Assembly (NCBI GenBank): GCA_003241875.1
Contig: QBLU01000012.1
Coordinates: forward strand, 757 to 64,756
DNA from: Alphaproteobacteria bacterium
Lineage (GTDB): Bacteria > Pseudomonadota > Alphaproteobacteria > Sphingomonadales > Sphingomonadaceae
Length of the DNA: 64,000 nucleotides
Direction of reading: 5' to 3'
The notes beneath the pieces were generated by a model. The model was given only the letters and a program-made list of their open reading frames with translations. It did no database searches and was not told the origin of the DNA. Below are positions 9,963 to 63,056 of the stretch, one piece after another (the stretch's first letter is position 1; every line of letters begins with the position of its first letter). The position numbers and the translations under genes are program-made.

Positions 9963-10484
9963 ATGGCACGCGGTGTGAAGTTCTGGCACGGCGACATGGT
10001 CGCCAACACGGTGTTCCCGCTCGAAAACAACTACAGCCAGGCCAACAAGGCCGACCAGGGCATCTGCACGGCCGCGGCGCTGGCCTGGTGTCGCGCCTCG
10101 CTGAAGCTCGGCCGCTTCGTGAACAGCTGGGCGGAGATCGGCACCACCGTCCACAACCTCAACATCGTCATGGCAACGCTGCGGCATCTCGATGCCAATC
10201 CGGTGGCGCAATGCGAGCTTGCCGGGGTCCGGGCGCTGGGGGGTGATCGCACCTGCGCCGGCATCGAGGAGGCGATGACCAACATCAAGCCGTCCGAATA
10301 CGGGATCGGCCTGTTCTGGAACAGCTATCACACGATGGCGTTCGGCTACAGCCACCTGCAGAAGGACTTTTTCGACATGAACTATGGGCTGTTCAGGTCG
10401 AAATACACCGCCGGCATCAAGGCCAAGGTGCAGGAACTCTATGGCGACGACATCATCGGCTACCGCCTCATCGGCAAGCTGTAG
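9963..10484 (+). CDS. Small stand-alone YopT/AvrPphB-like (peptidase C58) papain-fold cysteine protease
   Basis: Predicted triad C35 (QGICTAAALAW), H123 (YHTMAF), D138 (FFDMNYGLF); His-Asp spacing of 15 and the FFDxNxG motif match the C58 signature. Confidence 0.72.
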   Translation: MARGVKFWHGDMVANTVFPLENNYSQANKADQGICTAAALAWCRASLKLGRFVNSWAEIGTTVHNLNIVMATLRHLDANPVAQCELAGVRALGGDRTCAGIEEAMTNIKPSEYGIGLFWNSYHTMAFGYSHLQKDFFDMNYGLFRSKYTAGIKAKVQELYGDDIIGYRLIGKL

Positions 10485-10519: not shown

Positions 10520-12469
10520 CTACAGCTGCATCGCCTCCAGGCTGTCGAGCGGAATGAAACGCGGGGCCGCGGGCTCGGCGCCTTCCTGCGGGCGGAACAG
10601 CGGGTCGGCGGCGGCATAGGCCGAAAAATCATGGCCGGTGGCATCGGCGAGGTCGGTCACCGCGATCTGGAAGGTGCGATATTCGCCGAGCACGATGCCC
10701 TCCATCGCCTCGGTGCGGCTGCGGCGTTCAAGCAGGTCGCGGATCAGCTGGCCCTGGCTGAGCAGATAGGCGGTGGCGCGCAATCTGGTGCCGGTCTCGT
10801 CGAGCGTCGCCACCAGCTTCCAGTATTCGAGCGGCACGGTGGCGCCGTCGATGACCGGGTCGTCGGGGCCCAGGATCGGCCCGGTGAACACCGAGGCGAG
10901 GAAGCCGCCGGTGCGGGCATTGTCGAGGATGTAGTTTTCCAGCCCCTGCCACAGCAGCTTGCCCTGGTTGAGCTGCGAATGCTGCGGCGCGGCGTTGACG
11001 TAATGGAAGGTGTCGTCGTTGGCGAGCTGCGCCGATCCGCCCCAATTGGGGTCCTCGCGGCGCACCAGATGGCCGCGGTCGATCTCGGCATCGGCAAAGT
11101 TGGTCGACCCGAGCTGGATGGCGGCGGGGATGCGCAGGTCGGCGAACCACTTGTCGCGGCCGCGCTTGATGCGCACCGTCTTCTGGCCGTCGATGTTGAC
11201 CGCGGTCATCAGCGGCACCTTGGCTTCGGCGGAATATTTGACGCCGAAATGGGTGTAGCGCAGCTCGCCCGGCTCCTTGGGCTTGTCGGACGGCCTGGCA
11301 AGGCCGGTGGCGAGCGCCGGCGCCAGTTTTGGCCACGGCGTCGCGACCTTGCCCTTGCCGAGGAACTTGGTTGCAAAGCCCTTGCGGCCTTTGAAGAAAT
11401 CGGCGGCATGGCTGCCGTCGGCGAGGCTTTCGGTGGTCGCTTCAGCGCGGGCGCCACCGCCCGGCACCGCGACCGCCCTGCCCTTGAGCAACGCCTTCAG
11501 CGTCTCGACGCCGACGGCGCTGTTACCCTGGCCGAAGACGCCGGCGAAATGCAGGCCGACGACCTTGCCCGATTCCAGGCTGATCAGCGGCGATCCCGAA
11601 TTGCCGCCGAGGCTCGTGCAATCGTGCATCAGCAGCGTCTGGCCGGTCAGCGCCTGGGTGACGCGGCCCGGCGCCAGGCGCTTCACGTCATACAGGTCGC
11701 GGAAATATTTCTCCTGGGCGCCGGGATCGTTGCGGGAGTCGCGCGCCGGATAGCCGATCAGCGTCACCAGCTCGTCGAAGCCTGCTTCCTTGTCGGCGAG
11801 CGGCAGCGGCGACGGCTTGACCGGCGCGGTCGTCGCGACGCGCAGCAGCGCGCAATCGGCGGCGAGGTCGTCGGCGAGATATTCGATGGCGACGATCTGC
11901 ACGGTGTGGCTGGCACTGCCGCCGCTGCTGCCGTCTTCCTCGCGGAAATCGATGGCGATGCCTTGCCGGGCGCCGCCGGGGCTGCGCAGGAACACGCCGC
12001 TGCCGTTGGCGGCGCGCTGCGCGACCAGCTTGGCGACGTGGCGATTGGTGATGATGATGTCGCCGGTGGCGCGGCGATCGACGACCCAGCCGGTGCCGCC
12101 CCAGCGCATCGTCGAATTGACGAATTCGACGCGGCCGACCGACGGGATGTATTTCTGCACGCCGATGATCTTGGCATCGGCGCCGGGCAGGTCGGGCAGC
12201 GGCTCGAGCACGACCTGGTCGTTGCGGATCAGCAGCGGCGGCCGCCCGGTCAGCCGCACGATGGCTTCCAGCGCCGGCAGCGGCAGCAGGCTTTCGAGCT
12301 CGGCGGCGTCGCGTCCGGTGGTCGTCTCGATCTCGACCGGCAGCTCGGCGGCGACGGCGGGCGGCACGTTGCCGGCGGCGAGCCGGGCATTCACCGCCTC
12401 CACCATCTTGGGGGTCAACAGCCCGCGCAGGGTTTCGCGGCGTTCGGTGGTGTCGGCGGCGTCAGACAT
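10520..12469 (-). CDS. Trypsin-like serine protease fused to DNA/RNA non-specific (EndoG/NucA-type) endonuclease
   Basis: Protease triad ITNRHVA / ADCALL / GGNSGSP; nuclease DRGHLVRR...ANDDTFHYVNAAPQH..LNQG..WQGLE. Start at ATG 12469 with AGGAG RBS, overlapping the upstream stop; 649 aa. Confidence 0.9.
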   Translation of the reverse strand: MSDAADTTERRETLRGLLTPKMVEAVNARLAAGNVPPAVAAELPVEIETTTGRDAAELESLLPLPALEAIVRLTGRPPLLIRNDQVVLEPLPDLPGADAKIIGVQKYIPSVGRVEFVNSTMRWGGTGWVVDRRATGDIIITNRHVAKLVAQRAANGSGVFLRSPGGARQGIAIDFREEDGSSGGSASHTVQIVAIEYLADDLAADCALLRVATTAPVKPSPLPLADKEAGFDELVTLIGYPARDSRNDPGAQEKYFRDLYDVKRLAPGRVTQALTGQTLLMHDCTSLGGNSGSPLISLESGKVVGLHFAGVFGQGNSAVGVETLKALLKGRAVAVPGGGARAEATTESLADGSHAADFFKGRKGFATKFLGKGKVATPWPKLAPALATGLARPSDKPKEPGELRYTHFGVKYSAEAKVPLMTAVNIDGQKTVRIKRGRDKWFADLRIPAAIQLGSTNFADAEIDRGHLVRREDPNWGGSAQLANDDTFHYVNAAPQHSQLNQGKLLWQGLENYILDNARTGGFLASVFTGPILGPDDPVIDGATVPLEYWKLVATLDETGTRLRATAYLLSQGQLIRDLLERRSRTEAMEGIVLGEYRTFQIAVTDLADATGHDFSAYAAADPLFRPQEGAEPAAPRFIPLDSLEAMQL

Positions 12470-15400
12470 GGGACGTGACTCCTGTGAGGATGGCGAGCGG
12501 GGGGACAAAGGCCGAGGGAATGTCGTGGTCGAGCAGGGCGCCGGCGCGGGCGAGCGGGTCGGGCAGGGCGGCGACGATGCCGAGCACCCGGGTGTGGCGG
12601 CGTTGCAGCCGGGACAGCAGCCCGGGGCCGTCGCCGGCGGGATCCCACAGCGCCAGCTGCCGCATCGCCCAGTCGGCGGGATCGTCGAAATCGGCGAGTT
12701 TCTGGACGCGGCGCCGGATGATGCTGTCGGCGCCGCCGCCGCGCCCGTCCCCGCCCACATCCGGGCCGAGCCAGCCCGGCGGCGGCGTGTCGTACGACCA
12801 GCGGCCGGCGACGGTGCGGCGCCAGCGTTCGGCGGCGGCGGCGAGGGTGCCGAGATCGGGGTCGCGGTGGCGCCAGGCCTCGGCGCCGGCCCATTCGGCG
12901 AACAGGCCGAGCCCGGCGATGCCGGCGATGGGGTTGCCGGCGACCGGGCCGAGCCCGAGCGGCGAGCCCGAAAACAGCCCGCCGGCCTGGGCGAGCCGGG
13001 CGTCGGCGGCGCGCGCCGCGTCGATCAGCCGGTCGTTGCCGCGCAGCACGGCGAGGTTGGCGGCGATGATCGGATAGGGCGACAGCGCCACCAGCATCTG
13101 CGGGTCGTTCCATTCGATCGCCGCCGCGGATACCAGCCCGCGCGCGCCGAGCCGTTCGCGCACGACGCCAAAGGCATGGGCGGTCGCCGGCGCCTGGCTG
13201 CGGCGGCCGTCGGGCGCGGCGATCCAGGTGTCGAGCGCGGCCGCCACCGCGTCGCCGTCCTTCGACGACCACAGCGGCTCCTGGCGATGGCCATTAGCGG
13301 CGAGCACAAAGGCCAGCGCCCCCTGGCGGGCAAGCGGCCCGGCGTTGCGCATCGCCTCGGCGATCAGCCGGTCGATGCCAGGCAGGGCGAACATGCGCAG
13401 CAGCCGCGGCCGGGTGAATTCGGACCGGATCTCCAGCCGGGCGATGGCGAGCTGCAACGGGAGGCCGAAGACTTCGCCATCGTCGCGGACCAGCCGGTCA
13501 CGCTCGGCGAACATGCGCCGGGCGCGGTGCCAGCGGCCCGAGCGCCAGTAGAAGGCGCGGATGGCCATCGCCGCCGGCTGGCGCGGATCGAGGCCGCCGG
13601 CGGCCGCCATCTGGTCGACGACGAACTGGCCCTCGGCCCAATCCTCGCGGTCGATGAGGGTGAGGACCTCGGCCGCCAGCGCGGCGTCGTCGACCGTTGG
13701 TGCGGCGGCTTCGAGGACGCTGTCGCCGCCCTTGCGCAGCTTCGACGACCGGCGCCCGGCGGCGCCGGCAACGAGATCCTGCGCCACCGGCGGCAGCTCG
13801 GCGAGCATTGCCGGCTCGAACTGCTGCGCCACTGCGGTGGGGATCGCCGGGCGGGCCGGGCGAAAGCGCATCAGCTGTAGCCGGTGATAGGCGGCATCGA
13901 CGTCGGAGCGGGGGTCGCTTTGCCGCGCGAACCAGGCGGCGGCGGCGGCATCGACCCTTTCGCACAGCCTCGGCTGGTCGCGGTAGAGCAGGGGCAGCAG
14001 GATGGCGCGCATGTCGCTGCGATGGATGACGAAATCGCGGGCGACGGGATCGCGCTGGACGAGCCACAACTGGCCCGCCAGCGCGTTGAACAGCGCTTCG
14101 GCCCGGCCCGCGGCGAGGCGCGGCATGCCGAGCGCCGGCGCCAGCACATCGCCGAGGAAGCCGGCGCTGATCCGGCGTGCGAGCAGGCCGGGGTGGGCGA
14201 GCCGGCGCAATTCGGGGTCGTCGATCCGCGACAGCAGGATGCGGTAGAGGAACGCCGCCGCCACATCCTTGTCGATCGCGCCCTGCGGCAGTTCGCCGAC
14301 GCCATGGTCGCGGACCACGGTGGCGGCGAGGCGCAGCACCAGCGGGTTGCCGTCGGCGAGGTTGGCGATGGTCGCATGCGCCGCCGCCGGCACCTCGAGC
14401 CGGGTCAGCAACGCCTCGGTCGCCGGCGCATCGAGGCCGTCGAGCGGCACCGCCAGCCCGACCCGGCCGGGAGCGCTGTCGAGCGCGGCGCCGCGACCGG
14501 CGGCGAGCACGGCGAGCGGCCGCAGCCCGGCCGACAGCAGCGTGTCGAGCCAGCGGAACAGCCGCTCGGGATGTTCCTCGCCGCGGGCGCGCAGCACTTC
14601 GACGGTGTCGAGCACCAGCAGCACCGGCCGCCCGGAGGCGCGCACCGCGTCGCCGATCGCCGCGGCGAATTCGGGCGGCACGCTGCCGCGGCTGCTGTTG
14701 CCATAGCTTTCCTCGCCGCGGGTGACGCTGGCGGCGCGCAGCCGGGCGTCGAGCACCGGCTTGCCGGCGTCGCCGAGCCGGTCGGCGACCTGGCGCGCCA
14801 GCTCCATCGTCAGCCCGAGCAGGTCGTTGACGTCGAGGCCGGCACGGTCGAAATCGAGCCGCACGACGATGCACCCGTTGGCATCGGCGACGCTCGCATT
14901 TCCGGCTTCCGCAACACCGGCATCGCCGACGCGGCCGGTGACTTCCTCCAGCAGCGTCGATTTGCCGATGCCGGGGTTGCCGGCGATGTAGGCGGCGCGC
15001 ACCGGCAGCGCGACGAGCGGCTTTTCGAGCCAGGCGATCAGCGCCGCCGTCTCGCCTTCGCGCCCGAAGAAACCGCGCGCCTCGAATCCGCGGCGCCGCG
15101 CCTGGCGGTCATGGCGGGAGAGCGCCTGGCGGGCGTCGACGAGGCGGGCGCCGGCGGGGGCCGGCGGGCCGGCGCGGTCGAGCGCGGCGACGATGCGCTC
15201 GATGAGCGGGCGATCGGGCGTCGGCGCCGCGAGCGCCTGGGCGATGGCCGCGTCGGTGAAGGCGCCGTCCCCGGCCAGCGCCGCCAGCAGGTCGGCGGCG
15301 GGCAGGTCGGGGTCCTGGCTGCGGCGCTCGGCAACGGCGGCGAGCAGCTCGGCGCGGGTCGTCAGCTGCCGGTCGAGCACGAAGCGCCGTTCGCCGCTGC

Positions 15401-15611
15401 GGATCAGCCAGCGGGTGCCCCGGGGGCTGCCGGTGTCGAGATCGGTGTCGCAGGCGGCGGCGAGCGCCGAGGCGACCTGGGTGGTCAACCCCGCCCCACT
15501 GACAGCAGCCGCACGCAGCGCGGCGATCGGCTCGAACGGGCCGGACAGCGCCGCATAGCGTTTGGCGCGGATGACATAGGGGACGACATCTGGATCGAGC
15601 GGGCCGCTCAT
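12462..15611 (-). CDS. STAND-class (AAA_16-like) P-loop NTPase, 1049 aa
   Basis: GFFGREGE pre-Walker motif; Walker A GNPGIGKS; Walker B LLVLDTVEVL; GNPLVLRLAA (GxP); helical, partly TPR-like C-terminal region. Start at ATG 15611 in an ATGA overlap with the upstream stop. Confidence 0.85.
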   Translation of the reverse strand: MSGPLDPDVVPYVIRAKRYAALSGPFEPIAALRAAAVSGAGLTTQVASALAAACDTDLDTGSPRGTRWLIRSGERRFVLDRQLTTRAELLAAVAERRSQDPDLPAADLLAALAGDGAFTDAAIAQALAAPTPDRPLIERIVAALDRAGPPAPAGARLVDARQALSRHDRQARRRGFEARGFFGREGETAALIAWLEKPLVALPVRAAYIAGNPGIGKSTLLEEVTGRVGDAGVAEAGNASVADANGCIVVRLDFDRAGLDVNDLLGLTMELARQVADRLGDAGKPVLDARLRAASVTRGEESYGNSSRGSVPPEFAAAIGDAVRASGRPVLLVLDTVEVLRARGEEHPERLFRWLDTLLSAGLRPLAVLAAGRGAALDSAPGRVGLAVPLDGLDAPATEALLTRLEVPAAAHATIANLADGNPLVLRLAATVVRDHGVGELPQGAIDKDVAAAFLYRILLSRIDDPELRRLAHPGLLARRISAGFLGDVLAPALGMPRLAAGRAEALFNALAGQLWLVQRDPVARDFVIHRSDMRAILLPLLYRDQPRLCERVDAAAAAWFARQSDPRSDVDAAYHRLQLMRFRPARPAIPTAVAQQFEPAMLAELPPVAQDLVAGAAGRRSSKLRKGGDSVLEAAAPTVDDAALAAEVLTLIDREDWAEGQFVVDQMAAAGGLDPRQPAAMAIRAFYWRSGRWHRARRMFAERDRLVRDDGEVFGLPLQLAIARLEIRSEFTRPRLLRMFALPGIDRLIAEAMRNAGPLARQGALAFVLAANGHRQEPLWSSKDGDAVAAALDTWIAAPDGRRSQAPATAHAFGVVRERLGARGLVSAAAIEWNDPQMLVALSPYPIIAANLAVLRGNDRLIDAARAADARLAQAGGLFSGSPLGLGPVAGNPIAGIAGLGLFAEWAGAEAWRHRDPDLGTLAAAAERWRRTVAGRWSYDTPPPGWLGPDVGGDGRGGGADSIIRRRVQKLADFDDPADWAMRQLALWDPAGDGPGLLSRLQRRHTRVLGIVAALPDPLARAGALLDHDIPSAFVPPLAILTGVTSHV

Positions 15612-17380
15612 ATGACGGCCTTGAACATGGCGCGGACGGCCGGGCGCAGGCGCTCGGCGACCTGGCGGGCGGCCCAGGGGCTGTAGATGCCGTTGACTTC
15701 GTCGAGGCCGGCGAGGCCCATCTGCACCAGCTCGGCGACGCGTTCGGCCGAGGGCGACTTGCCCGCCGCCGCCGCCGCATCGGCGAGGAACAGCCGCACG
15801 TCGCTTTCGCCGAAGCCGGTGACATAGTCGGTCATCAGGCCGGGCGCGCCGATGTCGGGCGGGTTGGGCGGCGTCTGGAATTCGAGGCCGGGGATGGCCA
15901 CCGCCTCGAAGCCGGCGACGACGAGGCGCAAATTGGGCAGTTTCAGCGCCTGGTCGATGAAGCCTTCGAGTTCGGCGCGCATGGCATCGCCAAAGGCGAT
16001 CGCCGGATGGTCGATGAACAGCCAGAGCTGGCGGCCGACCGCGGCGGCCGTGGCGTCGAGCGCGGCGGCGGCGCGGCGGCCGCGATCGGCGCCGACGGCT
16101 TCGGGTGCGCTCTGTCCGGCGGCGACGCCCGGGCGATCCTCGATGGCGGCGCATTCGAAGCCGACCGCGGCGGCGCGGCGCAGGATGTCGTTGGCCAGGT
16201 CGGGGATCAGCGTTTCGAAGCTGATGCGGCACTGCCGCGTGTCGGGGCTGCGCGCCGTCATGCGGTCGAGCATGGCGAAGGAAAAGGCGAGGCCGGCGAG
16301 ATTGCCCGCCGCATCGGCGCGCTTGACGCGGATGCCGCGCACCCGGCCGTTGCCGCGGGCCAGCGCAAAGGCCTCGAAAAACGACTGGCGGCCGATGACG
16401 AACTCGCCATCGGGGGTGCCGTCGAGCGACCACATCCGCGGCGGTGCCAGGTCGGTGGTAACGACCGGCAGGATCCTGTCGTAGAATTTCGCCGTCGGCA
16501 CCAGCCGCCCGCCGTCGCGCCAGCCCTTGCCCTGGTGGATGCCGGCAAGGGTCAGCGTCGCATCGAAGCAGCCGCCGCCCGACGAGCCGCCACGGGTTTC
16601 GACGCTGTGGCCCCAGCGGCTGGTCAGGCGCGGGATCTTGGCCAGGCTGCCGATGCCGATGCCCTTGTCCTCGCCGTCGGGATAATGGACGACGATGACG
16701 GCGGCGCGGCGGCTGTAGGCGCCGGGTTTTGTCGGCAGCGGTGCCGATCCCATCAGCGCGCCGGCGGGGCGGGCGAGCCGGATGATGGCATAGTCGTTGT
16801 TGTCGCCGAACAGCGTGTCGTCGCGCGGCAGCCGGCTGGCGGCCTCGTCGGCGGTGGTCGGCGAGGCGACCAGCGGCGGCATCACCGCGTCGATCGAGCG
16901 GCCGTCGGACAGCAGCACGGTGACCTTAGACCAGGGTTCGGCGACCATCGTCGGGGTCGCGGCGAGGACATGGAAGGCGGTCAGCACCGTCGTCGGGCCG
17001 ACCAGCACGCCCGATCCCATGACGACGCCGTCGCGCAGGATGCGGCAGCGAAAGGCGGCGGCGCGGGCGAGGAAGGCGGCGGCCTTGACCGGATCGAGGT
17101 TCGATGCGGCGAGGTCCACCGCGCCGAACGCGGCGCCGCCGAAATCGATGGCGACACCGCGCACGCTGAGCGCCCGGGCAAAGGAATCGACGAGGTTGCG
17201 GCCCTGCAGCTGTTCGACCCAGAAGTCGCCGGGCGGCCGCCCGAACATCTGTGCCGCCGCGGTCAGCCCCGCCGCCTCCAGCCGCGGCCCGGTCGCATCG
17301 AGCATGACGGCGCCGAGCGCATCGGCGGCGACATCGGGGTGCGAATCGATCGCCGCGGCAATGTCGGCGGCCTCCCACAT
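15608..17380 (-). CDS. Trypsin-like serine protease with N-terminal helical domain and C-terminal degenerate (inactive) STAND-like domain
   Basis: GSGVLVG..VLTAFHV / NDYAIIRL / GGSSGGGCF triad intact. The C-terminal FVIGRQSF...LWLFIDHP follows STAND topology but has no GK[ST] Walker A. Confidence 0.78.
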   Translation of the reverse strand: MWEAADIAAAIDSHPDVAADALGAVMLDATGPRLEAAGLTAAAQMFGRPPGDFWVEQLQGRNLVDSFARALSVRGVAIDFGGAAFGAVDLAASNLDPVKAAAFLARAAAFRCRILRDGVVMGSGVLVGPTTVLTAFHVLAATPTMVAEPWSKVTVLLSDGRSIDAVMPPLVASPTTADEAASRLPRDDTLFGDNNDYAIIRLARPAGALMGSAPLPTKPGAYSRRAAVIVVHYPDGEDKGIGIGSLAKIPRLTSRWGHSVETRGGSSGGGCFDATLTLAGIHQGKGWRDGGRLVPTAKFYDRILPVVTTDLAPPRMWSLDGTPDGEFVIGRQSFFEAFALARGNGRVRGIRVKRADAAGNLAGLAFSFAMLDRMTARSPDTRQCRISFETLIPDLANDILRRAAAVGFECAAIEDRPGVAAGQSAPEAVGADRGRRAAAALDATAAAVGRQLWLFIDHPAIAFGDAMRAELEGFIDQALKLPNLRLVVAGFEAVAIPGLEFQTPPNPPDIGAPGLMTDYVTGFGESDVRLFLADAAAAAGKSPSAERVAELVQMGLAGLDEVNGIYSPWAARQVAERLRPAVRAMFKAVI

Positions 17381-17386
17381 CGCCGG

Positions 17387-18628
17387 TCAGGCATTCCAAG
17401 CCAGCGGGAATCGTTCGGGAACGCCGCTGCGCAATTCGACCGGCGCGGTGGGATGCAGGCCGGGCAGCAGCAGCAGTTGCCGGACGATCTCGCCGAGCAT
17501 CGGCCGGGCGATGGCGCGGCCGAGGCATTCGTGGATGCCCTGGCCGAAGGTGAAATTGTCGCCCTGCGCGCGGTGCGGGTCGAAACGGGTCGGATCGGGG
17601 AAGCTCGCCGGGTCGGACATGGCGCTGTGGGTCATCGCCAGCACGGTGGTGCCGGGCGGGATCATCTGCGCGTGCGGCGTACCGCCGGCGACCTGGGTGG
17701 CGCGGTGGCAGGTGCGGAAGAAATAGGGGAAGGCCGGGCGGAAGCGCAGCGCCTCCAGCGCGACGCCGTCGATGGCTTCGGGCGGGGCGGTGCGGGCGAG
17801 GTGCTGCGCCTCGGCGAGGGCTTCGGGGCGCGAGAACAGCTCCGCCATGACATTGTTGACGCAGTGGTTGGTCGTCTCGACGGCACCGATCAGCAGCCCG
17901 CCGGCGTTGAACAGCACCTTCTTGACGCCGAACTTGACGCCATCGGAAAAGGAAATCTGCAGCAGCCGCGTGATCGGATCGTCACCGCCGAGCCCCAGCT
18001 TCACCGCGATCGAGCGGCGCAGCACCAGCCGGCCGATGAACAGGCCAAGCCGGATGCTGCTGCGTTCGCGCCCGGCGGTGATCTCCGCCGATCGTGCCGC
18101 GCTCTGGCCGTCGAACGGCTGGTTGTGGAAGGCGTCCTGCTGGTTCCAGTAGGACCATTCGATAAGGTCGGCGGGGTCCTGGCCGTCGAGGCCGAAGAAC
18201 TGCTGCACCATGTCGACCGGCACCTGGCGGCTGAGCGCGGCGGGCACGTCGATCTGGCCGTTGGCCGCCATCAGCAGATTGGCGGTGCGATCGGCGACCC
18301 AGCTGCGGATTTCGGGAATCTGCTCGAAATCGAGCACCGCCTTCATGATCGATTTTTCGCGCCAGTGGTTGGCGGTATCGTCCTGCGCCATGAAGTAATC
18401 GCCCTGCTTGGGCTTGTAGAGATCGACGCCGAAATCGGCGTGGCGGCGCAGCACCAGGGCGCAATCGGCGTGGCGGAAGACCAGGGTCAGCTCGGGCAGC
18501 ACGATCACCGGCCGCTGTTCGCGGACCTCGGCAAAGAACGGGTGGGGTTCCTGCCGCATCCAGCCGCGCACCAGCGGCCAGCGTTGGGCCGCCGGCGTGG
18601 CGTCGAGCCGTTCGAGATAGCCTGTCAT
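17387..18628 (-). CDS. Cytochrome P450
   Basis: I-helix GLLIGAVETT; ExxR (EALR); FDPHR; heme motif FGQGIHECLG. Confidence 0.93.
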   Translation of the reverse strand: MTGYLERLDATPAAQRWPLVRGWMRQEPHPFFAEVREQRPVIVLPELTLVFRHADCALVLRRHADFGVDLYKPKQGDYFMAQDDTANHWREKSIMKAVLDFEQIPEIRSWVADRTANLLMAANGQIDVPAALSRQVPVDMVQQFFGLDGQDPADLIEWSYWNQQDAFHNQPFDGQSAARSAEITAGRERSSIRLGLFIGRLVLRRSIAVKLGLGGDDPITRLLQISFSDGVKFGVKKVLFNAGGLLIGAVETTNHCVNNVMAELFSRPEALAEAQHLARTAPPEAIDGVALEALRFRPAFPYFFRTCHRATQVAGGTPHAQMIPPGTTVLAMTHSAMSDPASFPDPTRFDPHRAQGDNFTFGQGIHECLGRAIARPMLGEIVRQLLLLPGLHPTAPVELRSGVPERFPLAWNA

Positions 18629-18646
18629 GTCCTGCCCCCGCAGCGT

Positions 18647-20437
18647 CTAGAGCGATTTCAGATATTCGAGCAGCGCCTGGCGCTGGGCTTCGGTGAGCTT
18701 GGCCACCCCGTATTCATGGCCTTCGCTGCCGTTGCCGGGGATCGCGAAGCCGTCGGCGGCCTGGGTGGCAAAGCGGAAGCTGTTGCCGGGCGCCGTGGCT
18801 TCCGTGCGATAGCCGACCTTGACGGGATCGTACTCGCGGGTGCCCATCATGAACGCCTTGGGCCGCTGCGCCGCCGGCAGCAGCAGGTCGTACAGCGTTG
18901 GCACCGAGCCGTTGTGGAGGAAGGGCGCCGTCGCCCAGATGCCGTCCAATGGCCGCGCCTTGTAGGCCATGTGCGGGCTGCCGGACTTGTAGCAGGCGTC
19001 GAGGACCAGCGGCCGCATGTCGGGCGCCTCCTCGATGACGACGCGCGGGGCACCGCCGCCGCCGAAGAACACCTTGGCGGTCTGGCCGATGATCTGGCCC
19101 TTCTTGCCGATCAGCGCGCCCTTGACGGTGGTTTCCAGCATCTCGGCGATCGGAGCTTCGGCGCCGAACTTTTCGCCGCTGCCGATATAGCCCTTGGTGG
19201 TGCCCTGCAGATTGCCGGTGGCGGATTTGTAGGTGATGGCGTTGCACGCCATCCATGGGTCGGTGGCGTTCGGCCCGGGTTTCAGCGGGATCATCGCCGC
19301 CTTCTGGAATTCGCCCGGGTCCTTCTTGTGGCAGCCCTCGCAATCGGCGGCGAACAGCGCCTTGCCGGCGGCGACCTTGGCCGGGTCGAGCGCGCCGAAG
19401 TTGGCCGGCCAGGCCGGCGACTTCAAGGAGACGAGCTGGGTTTCGAGGCGGATGAGATTGTCGGCCTGGACGCTGGATTTGTAGCCGCCGAGCCCGCCGC
19501 CCGGTGTCACCGTGATGTCGCCGAAGACGCCGATGACCTCGCCGGCGTTGCGGCCGAGCGCGCCGTAATCGAGGTAGCGGTTGCCGCCCAGCGACAGCCG
19601 CTGGTTCTGGGCGATGCCGTTCCACTGCAGCTTGTCGAAGCGGTGGATGTCCCAGATGTGCGGATAGCTGACCGGGGCGTCGGCGGGGTTGCGGGTCGGG
19701 CTGGCGGCACCGGTGAACAGCGCCACCTTGTTGAAGATGTGGCCAAAGGCGTCGACGCGGCCATAGCCATAGCGCAGCGGCGTCTTGTTCATGTCCTCGA
19801 CGCGGTCTTCCCAGGCGAGCAGCCTGGCCAGCGCGGCGCGCAGCAGGGTGCGGTTGCCGGGCGCGTCCTTGCTGCCGAGCGCCGCCTTGGCGAAACGGTC
19901 CCATTTTTCGGAGCCGTCGGGGGCGTTGACGGTGGCGCGCACGGCAGCGTCGAGGTCCTCGACAAAGGTCTGATAATCGAACAGCGCCGGGCCGCCGTCG
20001 ACGCGCATCGCCTTGCCCTGGTAGGTCAGCTCGGCGGTGTGGCAGGCCGAACAGTTCATCCCGACCCATTTTTCCTTCGGCCCCTGGCCGGCGAACCAGC
20101 GCAGTTTCGAATTGGCGAGATTGCTGTCGTCACTGTCATCGACGACGAGTCCGATCGGCAGCCGGTCGCTGTTGGGGCGCGGCAGCAGCCGCCACTGGGC
20201 GATGGTATCGGGGCCGAGGAAGGGCTTGGCCGCGTCAGGCTGTTCGAGCGCCAGCATCCAGGCCAGCGGCATCAGCCGGGAGCCCTGCGTCGCCGAATAC
20301 CAGGCCGATTGCTGCTGCGGCGACCAGTTTTGCCAGCCGGCCTGCGGCGCCGCATTGGAATAGGAGGCACAGGCCGCGATGGTCGCAGCTGTCGATAATG
20401 TTGCCAAAGCCTTGAGTATCAAAACGCGGTCGACCAT
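18647..20437 (-). CDS. Di-heme cytochrome c lipoprotein, RoxA/MauG/CcP-like
   Basis: Lipobox TIAAC; two CxxCH motifs (CSACH, CEGCH); YGYGRVDAFGHIFN; YKARPLDGIWATAPFLHNGSVPTLYDLL; GGGGAG RBS. Confidence 0.85.
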   Translation of the reverse strand: MVDRVLILKALATLSTAATIAACASYSNAAPQAGWQNWSPQQQSAWYSATQGSRLMPLAWMLALEQPDAAKPFLGPDTIAQWRLLPRPNSDRLPIGLVVDDSDDSNLANSKLRWFAGQGPKEKWVGMNCSACHTAELTYQGKAMRVDGGPALFDYQTFVEDLDAAVRATVNAPDGSEKWDRFAKAALGSKDAPGNRTLLRAALARLLAWEDRVEDMNKTPLRYGYGRVDAFGHIFNKVALFTGAASPTRNPADAPVSYPHIWDIHRFDKLQWNGIAQNQRLSLGGNRYLDYGALGRNAGEVIGVFGDITVTPGGGLGGYKSSVQADNLIRLETQLVSLKSPAWPANFGALDPAKVAAGKALFAADCEGCHKKDPGEFQKAAMIPLKPGPNATDPWMACNAITYKSATGNLQGTTKGYIGSGEKFGAEAPIAEMLETTVKGALIGKKGQIIGQTAKVFFGGGGAPRVVIEEAPDMRPLVLDACYKSGSPHMAYKARPLDGIWATAPFLHNGSVPTLYDLLLPAAQRPKAFMMGTREYDPVKVGYRTEATAPGNSFRFATQAADGFAIPGNGSEGHEYGVAKLTEAQRQALLEYLKSL

Positions 20438-20536
20438 GACGCTCCCCCGGTGGTGGTTGCAATCTGTTGGCGCGACTCGATCTTGTTTTTCGGGGAGTTT
20501 ACAGGCTTCGTTGCGCTGCGCAACGAGGTTGGCGAA

Positions 20537-20669
20537 CTCCCTCCCCCTTGAGGGGAGGGCGACTCGGCGCCAGCCGAGCGGGGTGGGGGTTTACGAGCGA
20601 CGACGTTGGGGACCCCCACCCCGCTCGCGCGAGCGCGAGTCGCCCTCCCCGCAGGGGGGGGGGAGGGGG
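20537..20669. repeat. Palindromic intergenic repeat, family C (CCCTCCCC...GGGGAGGG type)
   Basis: Hairpins CCCTCCCC-n-GGGGAGGG at both ends, with GGGTGGGGGT/ACCCCCACCC inverted arms; contains a G10 run at 20654-20663; a related hairpin is at 36783. Confidence 0.65.
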
Positions 20670-61375: not shown

Positions 61376-62707
61376 ATGGCGAGCCAGCATACCCTGTCGC
61401 GTGAAGAAGCGCCGCCGCAGTGGCCGCTGCCGCCGCGGATCCGCCCGGCGCTCGCCGATCACCAGCCGGGCACGCTGACCGCCTATCTGCAGGCGGCGCC
61501 GCTGGACGAAGTCGATATCGCCGATCCGCTGTGGTGGGAAACCGATACGCACTGGACGTTCTTCAAGCGGCTGCGCGACGAGGCGCCGATCCATTTCACG
61601 GCGCTCAACAAGGAACGCCACCGCGGCTATTGGTCGGTGACGCGCTGGGCCGACATCATGGCGGTCGACACCAACCACCAGGTGTTTTCGTCGGATGCGC
61701 ATCTGGGCGGCATCACGCTGTTCGACATGGACAGCGATTTCATCATGCCGATGTTCATCGCCATGGACCAGCCGAAGCATGACGTGCAGAGGAAGGCCGT
61801 CAACCCGATCGTATCGGGCCAGAATCTCGCCGATTTCGAGGGGCTGATCCGCAGCCGCACGCAGGAGGTCCTCGACGGCCTGCCGCGCGGCGAGGTGTTC
61901 GACTGGGTCGACAAGGTTTCGATCGAGCTGACCAGCCGGATGCTGGCGACGCTGTTCGATTTCCCGCAGGAACATCGCCGCAAGCTGACCTATTGGTCCG
62001 ACATTGCCACCGCCGATCCCGAAGTGCCCGGCAATCTGCAGAAGGAGGAGCGCCAGGCGGTGCTGCTCGGCATGCTGCAGGAATTCATGGGCCTGTGGAA
62101 CGAACGGGTGAACGATCCGGAGCCCAAGGGCGACTTGATCTCCATGCTCGCGCACAATCCGGCGACGCGGAACATGCCGCCGATGGAGTTCATGGGCAAT
62201 CTCGTGCTGCTGATCGTCGGCGGCAACGACACGACCCGCAACTCGATCACCGGCGGGCTGTATTTCCTCAACAAGAACCCGGCCGAATACGCCAAGCTGC
62301 GCGCCAATCCCGAGCTGATCGAGCCGATGGTGTCGGAGATCATCCGCTACCAGACGCCGCTGGCGCACATGCGGCGCACGGCGCTGGAGGACACCATCCT
62401 CGGCGGCCAGCACATCCGCAAAGGCGACAAGGTCATCATGTGGTACGTCTCGGGCAACCGCGACGAACGGGCGATCGAGAACCCCGATGCCTTCATCATC
62501 GACCGGCCGCGCGCCCGCCAGCATATGTCGTTCGGTTTCGGCATCCACCGCTGCGTCGGCAATCGCCTGGCCGAGCTGCAGCTGAAGATCCTGTGGGAAG
62601 AGATCGTCAAGCGCTTCGACACGATCGAGGTGGTGGCGGAGCCGGAACGGGTGCCGTCGGCTTTCGTCAAGGGCTACAAGTCGCTGATGGTCCGTATCCC
62701 GGCCTGA
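61376..62707 (+). CDS. Cytochrome P450, CYP153-like (alkane/terminal hydroxylase type)
   Basis: MFIAMDQPKHDVQR; LLIVGGNDTTRNS; EIIRYQTPLAHMRR; HMSFGFGIHRCVG. Confidence 0.92.
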   Translation: MASQHTLSREEAPPQWPLPPRIRPALADHQPGTLTAYLQAAPLDEVDIADPLWWETDTHWTFFKRLRDEAPIHFTALNKERHRGYWSVTRWADIMAVDTNHQVFSSDAHLGGITLFDMDSDFIMPMFIAMDQPKHDVQRKAVNPIVSGQNLADFEGLIRSRTQEVLDGLPRGEVFDWVDKVSIELTSRMLATLFDFPQEHRRKLTYWSDIATADPEVPGNLQKEERQAVLLGMLQEFMGLWNERVNDPEPKGDLISMLAHNPATRNMPPMEFMGNLVLLIVGGNDTTRNSITGGLYFLNKNPAEYAKLRANPELIEPMVSEIIRYQTPLAHMRRTALEDTILGGQHIRKGDKVIMWYVSGNRDERAIENPDAFIIDRPRARQHMSFGFGIHRCVGNRLAELQLKILWEEIVKRFDTIEVVAEPERVPSAFVKGYKSLMVRIPA

Positions 62708-62735
62708 TTTCAACGCATTATCTGCAGGACCAGCA

Positions 62736-63056
62736 ATGGCAACGATCACCTATGTCGAATTCAACGGCACCGAGCACGCCGTGCAGGTCGCCGACGGCGT
62801 CTCGCTGATGGAGGGCGCGCTGGGCAATGGCGTGCCCGGCATCGACGGCGATTGCGGCGGCAATGCCGCCTGCGCGACCTGCCACGTCTATATCGACCCG
62901 GCGTGGGAAGCGAAGACCGGCGAAAAGTCGGAGCTGGAATGCGACATGCTCGACCTGGCGGACGGGCTGCAGGACAACAGCCGGCTGGCGTGCCAGATCA
63001 AGGCTTCGGCGGATCTCGACGGGTTGATCGTGCGGATGCCGGCGACGCAGCACTAG
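62736..63056 (+). CDS. Putidaredoxin/adrenodoxin-type 2Fe-2S ferredoxin
   Basis: DCGGNAACATCH; SRLACQI. Confidence 0.95.
   Translation: MATITYVEFNGTEHAVQVADGVSLMEGALGNGVPGIDGDCGGNAACATCHVYIDPAWEAKTGEKSELECDMLDLADGLQDNSRLACQIKASADLDGLIVRMPATQH

Follow-up and report, generated by a model that had tools for sequence, protein, structure and literature searches.

A conserved pair of a di-heme lipoprotein and a cytochrome P450, encoded with a putative LypABC-type protease trio in a member of the Sphingomonadaceae

A di-heme c-type lipoprotein and a cytochrome P450 are encoded side by side, directly upstream of protease, NTPase and nuclease genes, on a 64,000-nucleotide stretch of DNA (contig QBLU01000012.1; referred to as the window) from a member of the Sphingomonadaceae. 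This locus raises the questions of whether the two heme proteins act together, on what substrate, and whether the genes that follow belong to the same system. Both reading frames were present on the minus strand with the features read in the original prediction, namely a lipobox, two CxxCH motifs and HNGSVP in the first product and an ETT-containing I-helix in a second product without a signal peptide. Positions are those of the window:

20438-20669, minus strand: intergenic region upstream of the gene cassette, with GC-rich palindromic repeats followed by a ribosome-binding site
18647-20437, minus strand: di-heme c-type lipoprotein, 596 aa, of the NF040606 family, with a RoxA fold and FadCcp-like in size and heme spacing
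20369-20380, minus strand: lipobox I-A-A-C, residues 20-23, with predicted lipidation at Cys23
20039-20053, minus strand: heme motif 1, CSACH, residues 129-133, invariant and aligned with RoxA C191-x-x-C194-H195
19328-19342, minus strand: heme motif 2, CEGCH, residues 366-370, 237 residues past motif 1, invariant
18899-18916, minus strand: HNGSVP, residues 508-513, inside the MauG/CcP-type block YKARPLDGIWATAPFLHNGSVPTL (PF21419, E 2.4e-19)
17387-18628, minus strand: cytoplasmic cytochrome P450 of class-I bacterial type, 413 aa
17870-17878, minus strand: I-helix acid-alcohol pair E251-T252-T253; E251 and T252 invariant and T253 conserved in at least 90% of 48 orthologues
17525-17527, minus strand: invariant heme-thiolate ligand Cys368 in FGQGIHECLG

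On motif reading, the N-terminus of the di-heme protein (MVDRVLILKALATLSTAATIAAC, i.e. K9...TIAAC23) fits the bacterial lipoprotein pattern [LVI][ASTVI][GAS]C, and Cys23 was conserved in at least 90% of 113 homologues. The model NF040606 (an uncharacterised subfamily named 'di-heme-cytochrome C peroxidase') scored 566.1 bits against a cut-off of 150 (E 1.1e-169), covering residues 38-595 and model positions 1-524 of 524. This full-length score, together with >1000 homologues for each of the two heme proteins, indicates that both are real genes and not chance open reading frames. The family is large: a 50%-identity representative library contained about 2,000 clusters of it (E<=1e-30). No di-heme relatives were found on viral contigs, indicating that the protein is not phage-borne, and PADLOC models gave zero matches for either the di-heme protein or the P450.

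An AF2 model of the di-heme protein (pLDDT 88) was searched against PDB structures with Foldseek. RoxA (4b2n) was the sole significant match and extended over the whole length (E 1.3e-10, probability 1.0, 697 aligned columns), with 17% identity and a TM of 0.43-0.47. In an HMM alignment to RoxA, CSACH, GNxNxGHDY and APYxHNGSVP all lined up, the last of these lying around LHNGSVPTL at residues 507-515. Fold length, the heme-1 CxxCH, the C-terminal distal histidine of heme 2 (H574, equivalent to RoxA H641) and the MauG-type block thus place the protein in the RoxA-fold superfamily. Membership of RoxA, RoxB or RoxC themselves was rejected, as the equivalog models scored 46.7-53.3 bits against cut-offs of 900-1000 and matched only the C-terminal block of ~40 residues; the label 'RoxA/MauG-like' used in the original prediction was consequently too loose. 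The protein also differs from RoxA in its heme spacing (237 versus 199 residues), in being lipid-anchored and not secreted, and in having no rubber-degradation context; PMC4496055 gives the RoxA spacing and assigns C191-x-x-C194-H195 to the active-site heme. Classical di-heme peroxidases and MauG share the two c-type hemes and a C-terminal HNGS block. Identity as a classical bCcP or MauG (~320-380 aa) was rejected, those proteins being about half the size and giving weak or non-significant matches (3o5c, E 0.0029; 6e1c, Foldseek E 2.7).

The published descriptors of FadCcp were all present (i.e. 596 aa or ~65 kDa, heme spacing of 237 and LHNGSVP). The published account (PMC4496055) presents Pseudomonas PA2077 and PA2078 as RoxA-like fatty-acid dioxygenases of ~65 kDa with heme motifs 235-245 residues apart and a PYLHNGSV block, and by these descriptors the protein resembles them as a periplasmic RoxA-like di-heme enzyme of similar mass and spacing. 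By analogy with these enzymes, the lipid or oxylipin-type substrate that had been put forward for the pair would be plausible.

Neither a signal peptide nor a Tat motif was found at the N-terminus of the P450, and the predicted separation of the two enzymes into different compartments was upheld. The class-I hallmarks were all present, comprising FxxGxHxCxG, an ExxR motif (EALR, E292xxR295) and the acid-alcohol pair in an I-helix reading GGLLIGAVETT. Identity to any solved P450 was at most 25%, and its sequence makes a new CYP family likely. The sequence and fold neighbours were EryK, PikC, CYP109, CYP125 and CYP153, all ferredoxin-dependent class-I enzymes, with CYP109, EryK, CYP125 and PikC as the nearest folds. 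Mean column identity among orthologues was 68%; strong conservation of both heme proteins is equally compatible with a fixed metabolic substrate and with an effector.

As originally observed, the operon encodes neither a ferredoxin nor a reductase, and inspection of the window and of two further loci (L031 and L048) found none adjoining the pair. This absence would fit a P450 that needs neither O2 nor reductant and acts on a fatty-acid hydroperoxide by isomerisation or dehydration, in the manner of CYP74 allene oxide synthases or of the P450 domains of fungal diol synthases; fungal linoleate diol synthases carry a hydroperoxide isomerase of the P450 type next to their dioxygenase (PMC4496055). 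These DOX-CYP fusions likewise couple a heme dioxygenase to a product-processing P450; they differ in having an unrelated dioxygenase fold, in being fused within one compartment and in a partner-independent P450 domain, whereas the proton-relay pair E251-T252 is intact and invariant here. Membership of the CYP74/CYP152 type was rejected on this invariance and on the absence of such families among the listed sequence and fold neighbours. An adjacent ferredoxin was also missing at 5 of the 6 P450 genes of this genome, so that its absence from the operon is uninformative; 2Fe-2S ferredoxins are encoded in trans, as shown by 12 Fer2 matches across the genome, among them small ferredoxin frames on contigs C15 and C11. 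Neighbour clustering across loci took open reading frames of >=90 aa, which a smaller ferredoxin could escape. Independence from a redox partner, as first proposed, is therefore quite unlikely, the class-I neighbours weighing against it as well.

Pairing was examined in a census of 80 species-level di-heme loci, in which genes were defined by stop-to-stop ORF clustering and HMMs; shadow-frame clusters (unk7, 14, 26, 27 and 42) were ignored, and nothing was drawn from five long-branch rows of odd composition (L025, L035, L037, L065 and L077), which are probably extraction artefacts. In 37 of the 80 loci the P450 adjoined the di-heme gene, either preceding or following it. Among 401 sampled genomes of the order, 8 (2%) had the di-heme gene and 3 had a P450 orthologue; in each of these 3 the di-heme gene lay directly adjacent, and the P450 was present in 0/393 genomes without a di-heme gene. 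The chance of the P450 falling within the di-heme genomes is C(8,3)/C(401,3), or ~5e-6. The dependence runs one way, since 37 of the 43 genomes with a P450-less di-heme locus had no P450 orthologue anywhere. The di-heme gene stood alone in 27/80 loci and without the P450 in 43/80, indicating that it is not intrinsically lethal. The functional pair first suggested from one locus is thus a conserved two-gene oxidative module, consisting of a lipid-anchored periplasmic di-heme enzyme and a dedicated cytoplasmic class-I P450.

Three further genes follow the pair:

15608-17380, minus strand: LypA-like protein, 590 aa, with a helical N-terminal domain and a trypsin-like protease (H137/D196/S267)
12462-15611, minus strand: LypB-like STAND/NLR-like NTPase, 1049 aa from MSGPLDP, with AAA_16, nSTAND1 and Walker A GNPGIGKST
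10520-12469, minus strand: LypC-like fusion of a trypsin protease and a DNA/RNA non-specific endonuclease, 649 aa from MSDAADTT

The di-heme ATG is preceded by the ribosome-binding site GGGGAG at 4 nt, the di-heme stop and P450 start are separated by 18 nt, and the P450 stop and LypA-like start by 6 nt; the LypA-like and LypB-like genes then overlap by 4 nt, and the LypB-like and LypC-like genes by 8 nt. A promoter and terminator scan stayed at chance level, and its sole promoter-consensus match lay inside the di-heme ORF. The C-terminal region of the LypA-like protein lacked a Walker A motif, and the LypC-like domains matched Endonuclease_NS (6.2e-43) and Trypsin_2 (3e-16). Gene order and domains agreed with the published description of LypABC/CARD-NLR systems (PMC13236601), i.e. 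helical-trypsin-degenerate ATPase, Walker A/B STAND with repeats, and trypsin with or without an effector domain, and the sizes (590/1049/649 aa) were close to those given for LypA (592 aa) and LypC (662 aa). By these sequence features the last three genes of the operon form a putative CARD-NLR trio of the LypABC type, and the heme pair its first two genes. The locus is unlike LypABC in having a longer LypB-like protein and heme enzymes, which feature in no described CARD-NLR system. LypABC-like trios (39-52% LypA identity) lacked the heme pair at 8/8 loci with enough upstream sequence, and a control genome of Caulobacter vibrioides had no NF040606 match, indicating that such a trio works without the heme pair.

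Linkage of the pair to proteases extended beyond this operon. Protease genes adjoined the di-heme gene in 38/80 loci with at least five architectures. Besides the Lyp type these include caspase with astacin; secreted astacin with trypsin; a PG-binding trypsin; and, as a further independent architecture, three secreted proteases (metzincin, subtilase and trypsin) with a patatin lipoprotein or a tyrosinase. A 46-row clade of the di-heme tree (SH-aLRT 99) contained 34 protease-linked loci, and almost all loci outside it were unlinked; one di-heme clade is repeatedly tied to protease-centred modules. Run against the entire 3.8-Mb genome, the protease HMMs of the census had only 1 match that did not belong to the cassette. 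The original prediction would have regarded the linkage as incidental if homologous pairs mostly lacked the trypsin/STAND genes and had a known catabolic substrate. The first part held, with trypsin/STAND genes specifically at 7/37 pairs, although some protease module was present at 22/37; the second did not, as no catabolic substrate is known. The five-gene cassette was also kept in several genera behind different upstream genes (i.e. DUF885, patatin or an RND pump), and with the clade-wide ties to other protease modules this argues that the downstream link is not incidental. Two congeneric loci with the orthologous DUF885 gene and no cassette (L111 and L112) showed neither far-side synteny nor a clean insertion boundary.

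These counts bear on whether the heme pair is instead an autonomous metabolic module, i.e. a short pathway, either catabolic or for oxylipin signalling, that acts on a lipid or isoprenoid from outside the cell or from the envelope, comparable to the uptake and degradation of RoxA products or to the Pseudomonas oleate-diol synthase, with the protease/NLR genes adjacent through shared residence on mobile accessory DNA and not functionally coupled. Loci without proteases were frequent (42/80, and 15/37 of the pairs), linkage was concentrated in the one clade, both heme proteins are highly conserved, genes for an SDR, an enoyl-CoA hydratase or a TonB receptor occasionally adjoin, and the trio occurs without the pair. 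Against these observations stand the 6-nt gap between the P450 and LypA-like genes and the five-gene unit behind three upstream genes, which point to co-transcription and co-inheritance; an association of at least five non-homologous protease architectures with one rare family (2% of the order's genomes), which is hard to attribute to chance; and the lack of relatives on viral contigs. An autonomous module is accordingly somewhat unlikely.

The constant companions of the di-heme gene being protein-processing enzymes, chemistry of the MauG kind was also considered, in which the di-heme enzyme would oxidise or cross-link protein residues, e.g. in a component or target of the protease system, and not lipid. 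Its C-terminal block places the protein in the CcP/MauG superfamily, and MauG and MbnH modify proteins (PMC6405878). The whole-length fold match to RoxA and the non-significant match to MauG-like 6e1c make this very unlikely; no conserved candidate substrate protein accompanied the di-heme gene across architectures, and a dedicated cytoplasmic P450 would be left without a role.

The pair, the five-gene operon with a LypABC-type trio and the protease-linked clade are, as a description, held with high confidence. The best explanation as a whole, held tentatively, is a two-step oxidation of an envelope lipid that protease-based conflict systems have recruited as an accessory arm, in which it probably serves as their output. 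The di-heme enzyme would use O2, with dioxygenase chemistry of the RoxA/FadCcp type, on an unsaturated lipophilic envelope component, for which isoprenoids and the fatty acyl chains of the membrane are candidates, and its lipophilic product would be a hydroperoxide or a cleaved carbonyl. This product would pass to the cytoplasm, where the P450 would oxidise or consume it with electrons from a ferredoxin encoded elsewhere. An output or amplifier role, exerted through oxidative membrane damage with the P450 as a product-consuming safety, is the favoured role, though at low confidence, and draws on the Pseudomonas enzymes: over-expressed PA2077 is lytic and PA2078 removes the toxicity (PMC4496055). 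The proposed logic of a hydroperoxide maker, lytic alone in Pseudomonas, and a consumer would be common to both systems. Here, unlike PA2077/PA2078, the second enzyme is a cytoplasmic P450 and not a di-heme paralogue, the first is a lipoprotein, and the context is an immune/cell-death operon instead of a two-gene oxylipin operon. Against the explanation as a whole, signal peptides are absent from the Lyp-type, caspase and astacin proteases found in architectures A and B, and these proteases cannot cleave a mature periplasmic lipoprotein.

The heme module has been given less weight as an input signal. On this reading, the second one offered by the original prediction, the di-heme protein would respond to envelope damage or peroxide by producing a small molecule from lipid, which the P450 would mature into a ligand licensing the NLR-like ATPase. 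Within the operon the heme genes do precede those of the NLR, the compartment split requires a diffusible intermediate, and the LypB-type ATPases have a relative in MalT, a STAND protein controlled by a small molecule (PMC13236601). Such a relay is unlikely: architectures C, D and E encode no NTPase and exported proteases only, leaving no cytoplasmic receiver; the cues sensed by known CARD-NLR, Avs and bNACHT systems are phage proteins (PMC10312443 and other papers); and in Caulobacter the trio works in the absence of the pair.

A stronger form of the output reading would make the di-heme lipoprotein a protease-licensed oxidative death effector that peroxidises membrane lipids and causes ferroptosis-like killing or lysis once the proteases are activated. 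A patatin may first free fatty acids in some cassettes, and the P450 would be a cytoplasmic safety, consuming the peroxide until it is itself removed, possibly through cleavage by the Lyp proteases. The arthropod prophenoloxidase system is a protease-cascade-activated oxidase, and in one sister operon a tyrosinase occupies the patatin slot. This death-effector role is judged improbable.

CARD-NLR/LypABC systems, which include those of Caulobacter crescentus (PMC13236601) and the Lysobacter gasdermin system (PMC10312443), have recently been described as the bacterial equivalent of inflammasomes. Their extra effector gene (gasdermin, phospholipase or nuclease) is known to be exchanged among members. 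Lysis in Caulobacter does not require the LypC nuclease, and which effector acts downstream of LypABC to lyse the cell is not known (PMC13236601). In the literature searched there was no report of heme oxygenases as parts of CARD-NLR/LypABC systems, nor of a di-heme/P450 link to protease-based cell-death or defence modules. If true, the death-effector role would put forward a type of lytic effector for systems like LypABC, and would be a bacterial equivalent of oxidases that are activated by protease cascades, such as prophenoloxidase. Independently of any conflict role, a large uncharacterised di-heme family gains a functional context and, in the 401-genome sample, a strictly co-occurring and likely new P450 family. 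The association of this rare pair with at least five protease modules suggests that bacterial conflict systems have an oxidative arm, probably directed at lipids, that has gone unrecognised, and the five-gene cassette offers a tractable system in which this idea may be tested.

Five tightly packed ORFs were found on the minus strand of the window:

18647-20437, minus strand: di-heme gene, 596 aa, first of the five ORFs
17387-18628, minus strand: P450 gene, 413 aa, second of the five ORFs
Next, minus strand: LypA-like gene, 590 aa, a helical N-terminal domain followed by trypsin (H137/D196/S267) and a C-terminal region that lacks a Walker motif
Next, minus strand: LypB-like gene, 1049 aa, a STAND NTPase with Walker A GNPGIGKST
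Last, minus strand: LypC-like gene, 649 aa, a trypsin domain fused to Endonuclease_NS

A GGGGAG ribosome-binding site lies 4 nt ahead of the di-heme ATG, gaps of 18 and 6 nt separate the di-heme stop from the P450 ATG and the P450 stop from the next ATG, and the two junctions after the P450/LypA-like one are overlaps of 4 and 8 nt. Judged by sequence, the heme pair is co-operonic with a CARD-NLR trio. In agreement with the original observation, no ferredoxin or reductase gene is encoded within the five-gene operon. A GC-rich palindromic repeat, which may be a REP-like element, lies between the DUF885 gene and the cassette (window 20536-20668) and matches, in both orientations, an unrelated site in a congener genome (L111:13780-13909).

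The first gene had been described as encoding a lipoprotein with an IAAC lipobox, two CxxCH motifs and HNGSVP, and the ORF at 18647-20437 bears this out. The protein has the N-terminus MVDRVLILKALATLSTAATIAAC, both CxxCH motifs are invariant and the lipobox cysteine at least 90% conserved among di-heme homologues, and the motifs are placed as follows:

Residues 129-133: heme motif CSACH
Residues 366-370: heme motif CEGCH
Residues 507-515: LHNGSVPTL

The whole protein is covered by a match to NF040606 (i.e. the NCBIfam 'di-heme-cytochrome C peroxidase' family; 566 bits, cut-off 150), whilst the only parts recognised by Pfam were a RoxA-like block of 39 residues at the C-terminus and the second heme site. 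A profile of 113 homologues found one solved relative, the rubber oxygenase RoxA (PDB 4b2n), with an alignment spanning the heme-1 CSACH, the APYxHNGSVP block and GNxNxGHDY, in which H574 aligns with H641, the distal heme-2 ligand of RoxA. RoxA was also the only significant fold match of an AlphaFold model (pLDDT 88.1, pTM 0.88), over the whole length (E 1.3e-10, TM 0.47/0.43, 17% identity); MauG-like and cytochrome c1 fold matches of the model were below significance. The product is a periplasmic, lipid-anchored di-heme enzyme of the RoxA fold. Membership of the RoxA, RoxB or RoxC equivalogs was rejected, as scores of 47-53 bits fell far short of the 900-1000 required. The published account of PA2077 and PA2078, two Pseudomonas fatty-acid di-heme peroxidases, gives them sizes of 65-66.5 kDa, heme motifs 235-245 residues apart and a PYLHNGSV motif, with a heme-motif spacing of 199 in RoxA (PMC4496055). 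The spacing of 237 in the window protein lies within the former range and differs from that of RoxA, and by such published descriptors the protein resembles PA2077/PA2078 more than it does RoxA. The wider family is large, a library of 50%-identity representatives containing 2,025 of its clusters (E<=1e-30), and no relatives were found on viral contigs. The sole disordered stretch of the model (residues 453-471, window ~19025-19081, pLDDT <50) falls in a loop whose length varies across the family and which, from the model, could be an exposed protease-sensitive site.

The second gene encodes a P450 that, as originally noted, has no export signal and keeps the ETT motif (GGLLIGAVETT), accompanied by EALR and FGQGIHECLG. 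It is a divergent class-I bacterial type, with EryK and PikC as its best solved relatives (E about 1e-22) and CYP109, EryK, CYP125, PikC and CYP153 as its best folds at identities of <=25%. CYP families are usually bounded at 40% identity, and by this rule the protein is assigned, on its sequence, to a new family. E251, T252, C368 and ExxR are invariant in 48 orthologues, as is an unusual block, Y160-W-N-Q-x-D-A-F-x-N-Q-x-F172, and this pattern is the one expected of a monooxygenase that activates O2 and depends on a reductant. A CYP74/CYP152-type enzyme was rejected, as the signature of these types is lacking and E251-T252 is invariant. The proposal that this P450 dispenses with a redox partner was therefore not sustained: the class-I signature is intact, and a missing local ferredoxin is the norm for this genome, in which one of six P450 genes has an adjacent 2Fe-2S ferredoxin and 12 Fer2 matches occur overall. 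As five of the six have no adjoining ferredoxin, absence of a partner from the operon says little. The one P450 gene that does have such a neighbour also lies in this window (~62123-63005, plus strand), with a small 2Fe-2S ferredoxin frame immediately after it, and might supply electrons in trans to the other P450s of the genome.

Many contigs were common to the homologue lists of the two heme proteins. In a census of 80 species-representative di-heme loci, whose neighbours were defined by clustering ORFs and not from curated annotation, a P450 orthologue (52-93% identity) directly adjoined the di-heme gene at 37, in both gene orders. Among 401 genomes evenly drawn from the order, the di-heme gene was present in eight (2%) and the P450 orthologue in three, all three having an adjacent di-heme gene, and no orthologue was found in the 393 genomes lacking the di-heme gene; the chance of this coincidence is C(8,3)/C(401,3), or about 5e-6. 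For 43 genomes with a P450-less di-heme locus, an orthologue was present elsewhere in six, one adjoining a second di-heme gene, and absent in 37. As the P450 is confined in this sample to di-heme genomes and the di-heme gene often occurs without the P450, dependence is one-way (i.e. the P450 needs the di-heme enzyme), which is what a downstream pathway step looks like. In Hansschlegelia zhihuaiae, the two genes lie on separate contigs of one genome (L005, L038), indicating that co-occurrence can outlast lost adjacency.

Protease genes are recurrent neighbours of the di-heme gene, and patatin phospholipase genes occasional ones. An identical five-gene unit was found in a Sandarakinorhabdus isolate (93% identity) and several MAGs, in Sphingobium sufflavum and in Sphingomonas sp. 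GB1N7, preceded by a DUF885, patatin or RND pump gene, respectively. In three further species, including Sphingomonas sp. Leaf339 and S. mollis, a related Lyp-like arrangement is convergent with the di-heme gene, in the order trypsin-nuclease, EAD1-trypsin, one gene of no named family, nSTAND1 and small 3-4-TM protein. Other protease neighbourhoods were as follows:

Arrangement B, divergent from the di-heme gene: two small TM proteins, astacin, caspase (C14) and TPR-like protein
Arrangement C, co-directional, 7 loci in Rhodobacterales and one Parvibaculaceae MAG: secreted astacin-like metallopeptidase, secreted trypsin and secreted beta-propeller with PG-binding domain
Arrangement D, 5 loci: PG-binding trypsin
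Arrangement E, 3 loci: secreted metzincin, subtilase and trypsin, then patatin lipoprotein or tyrosinase

The three soluble proteins of arrangement B lack signal peptides; astacin and caspase occur together at nine loci and astacin only at four more. An example that Sandarakinorhabdus glacialis shares with eight further species (L031:5761-9938, minus strand, divergent from the di-heme/P450 pair) has an astacin without a signal peptide, which is unusual for astacins, and looks like an undescribed conflict module. In arrangement E, the di-heme lipoprotein, metzincin, subtilase and trypsin are followed by a tyrosinase+DUF7868 protein at L062:11830-17768 and by a patatin lipoprotein at L067:11788-17339. 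Every protein inspected at the latter has an export signal, and its patatin is homologous (E 5e-74) to that directly upstream of the Sphingobium sufflavum cassette (L016).

Overall, a protease neighbour was present at 38 of the 80 loci, in 22 cases together with the P450, whilst 27 loci had neither. At the same threshold, the protease HMMs gave one match outside the cassette in the 3.8-Mb genome, with the caveat that they were built from the neighbour proteases themselves. In the di-heme tree, one 46-row clade (SH-aLRT 99) holds 34 linked loci, and within the caspase/astacin-linked rows is nested a clade (99) made up of the nine Lyp-linked rows; the arrangement E rows fall outside the larger clade, indicating an independent protease association. 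An incidental metabolic module, adjoining proteases with no functional coupling, is rather unlikely. The linkage to the protease-NTPase-nuclease module is not incidental: the five-gene unit recurs behind differing upstream genes, a related set is convergent with the di-heme gene, and unrelated protease sets occur elsewhere.

The trio shares gene order and domain content, as compared by published description, with LypABC, a CARD-NLR relative (LypA 592 aa, LypC 662 aa) whose nuclease is dispensable for lysis and whose lytic effector is yet to be named (PMC13236601). The LypA-like gene is rare (1/401 genomes). No heme pair was present at any of 12 metagenomic LypABC-like loci (39-52% LypA identity), eight of which extend 2.9 kb or more upstream, and a Caulobacter vibrioides control genome had no NF040606 match. 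As such trios occur without it, the heme pair is an addition, gained within a single sub-lineage, to a trio that is self-sufficient. Each part is of a known kind (RoxA/FadCcp superfamily, class-I P450s, LypABC/CARD-NLR); their combination was not found in the conflict-system, CARD-NLR or protease-effector papers searched or in broader searching, and appears new. A conserved 143-153-aa protein with 3-4 TM helices (MSLRIV...WSTRIAKLIPAEALGLYG), a candidate membrane effector of CARD-NLR-like systems, closes Lyp-like cassettes in two genera; in three species its gene has nSTAND1 on one side and the di-heme gene on the other. Its loci are:

L003:20048-20491: small 3-4-TM gene
L004:19863-20294: small 3-4-TM gene
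L007:11802-12263, minus strand: small 3-4-TM gene
Also at L013-L015

It is absent from the window, where a 173-aa ORF (9963-10484, plus strand), convergent with the nuclease gene, occupies its slot but is unrelated to it.

By analogy with RoxA and PA2077, the di-heme enzyme would oxygenate an unsaturated lipophilic envelope molecule, the product would pass across the membrane, and the cytoplasmic P450 would oxidise it with a ferredoxin encoded elsewhere. Coupling of this two-step lipid oxidation to the conflict system is plausible, though held tentatively. Against an output role, the di-heme enzyme does not share the cytoplasm with the Lyp, caspase and astacin proteases, its gene is often solitary, LypC already has a nuclease, and both heme proteins are unusually conserved. 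An input or relay role for the pair seems improbable. A role as output or amplifier of the cassette is favoured, if still doubtful. In the Pseudomonas account, over-expression of PA2077 by itself lyses cells as hydroperoxide builds up, and PA2078 abolishes that toxicity (PMC4496055), an analogy that would suit such a role. CARD-NLR systems also exchange effectors, as when bacterial gasdermin systems with CARD-like domains swap an extra gasdermin, phospholipase or nuclease gene (PMC10312443). Further, one constant enzyme joins many unrelated protease families, a pattern shown by protease-controlled effectors (PMC12642450, PMC12799240), and an output of lipid or oxidative type would suit the patatin and tyrosinase genes seen in sister operons, so that the heme pair may serve these bacteria as the output or amplifier of a CARD-NLR cassette.
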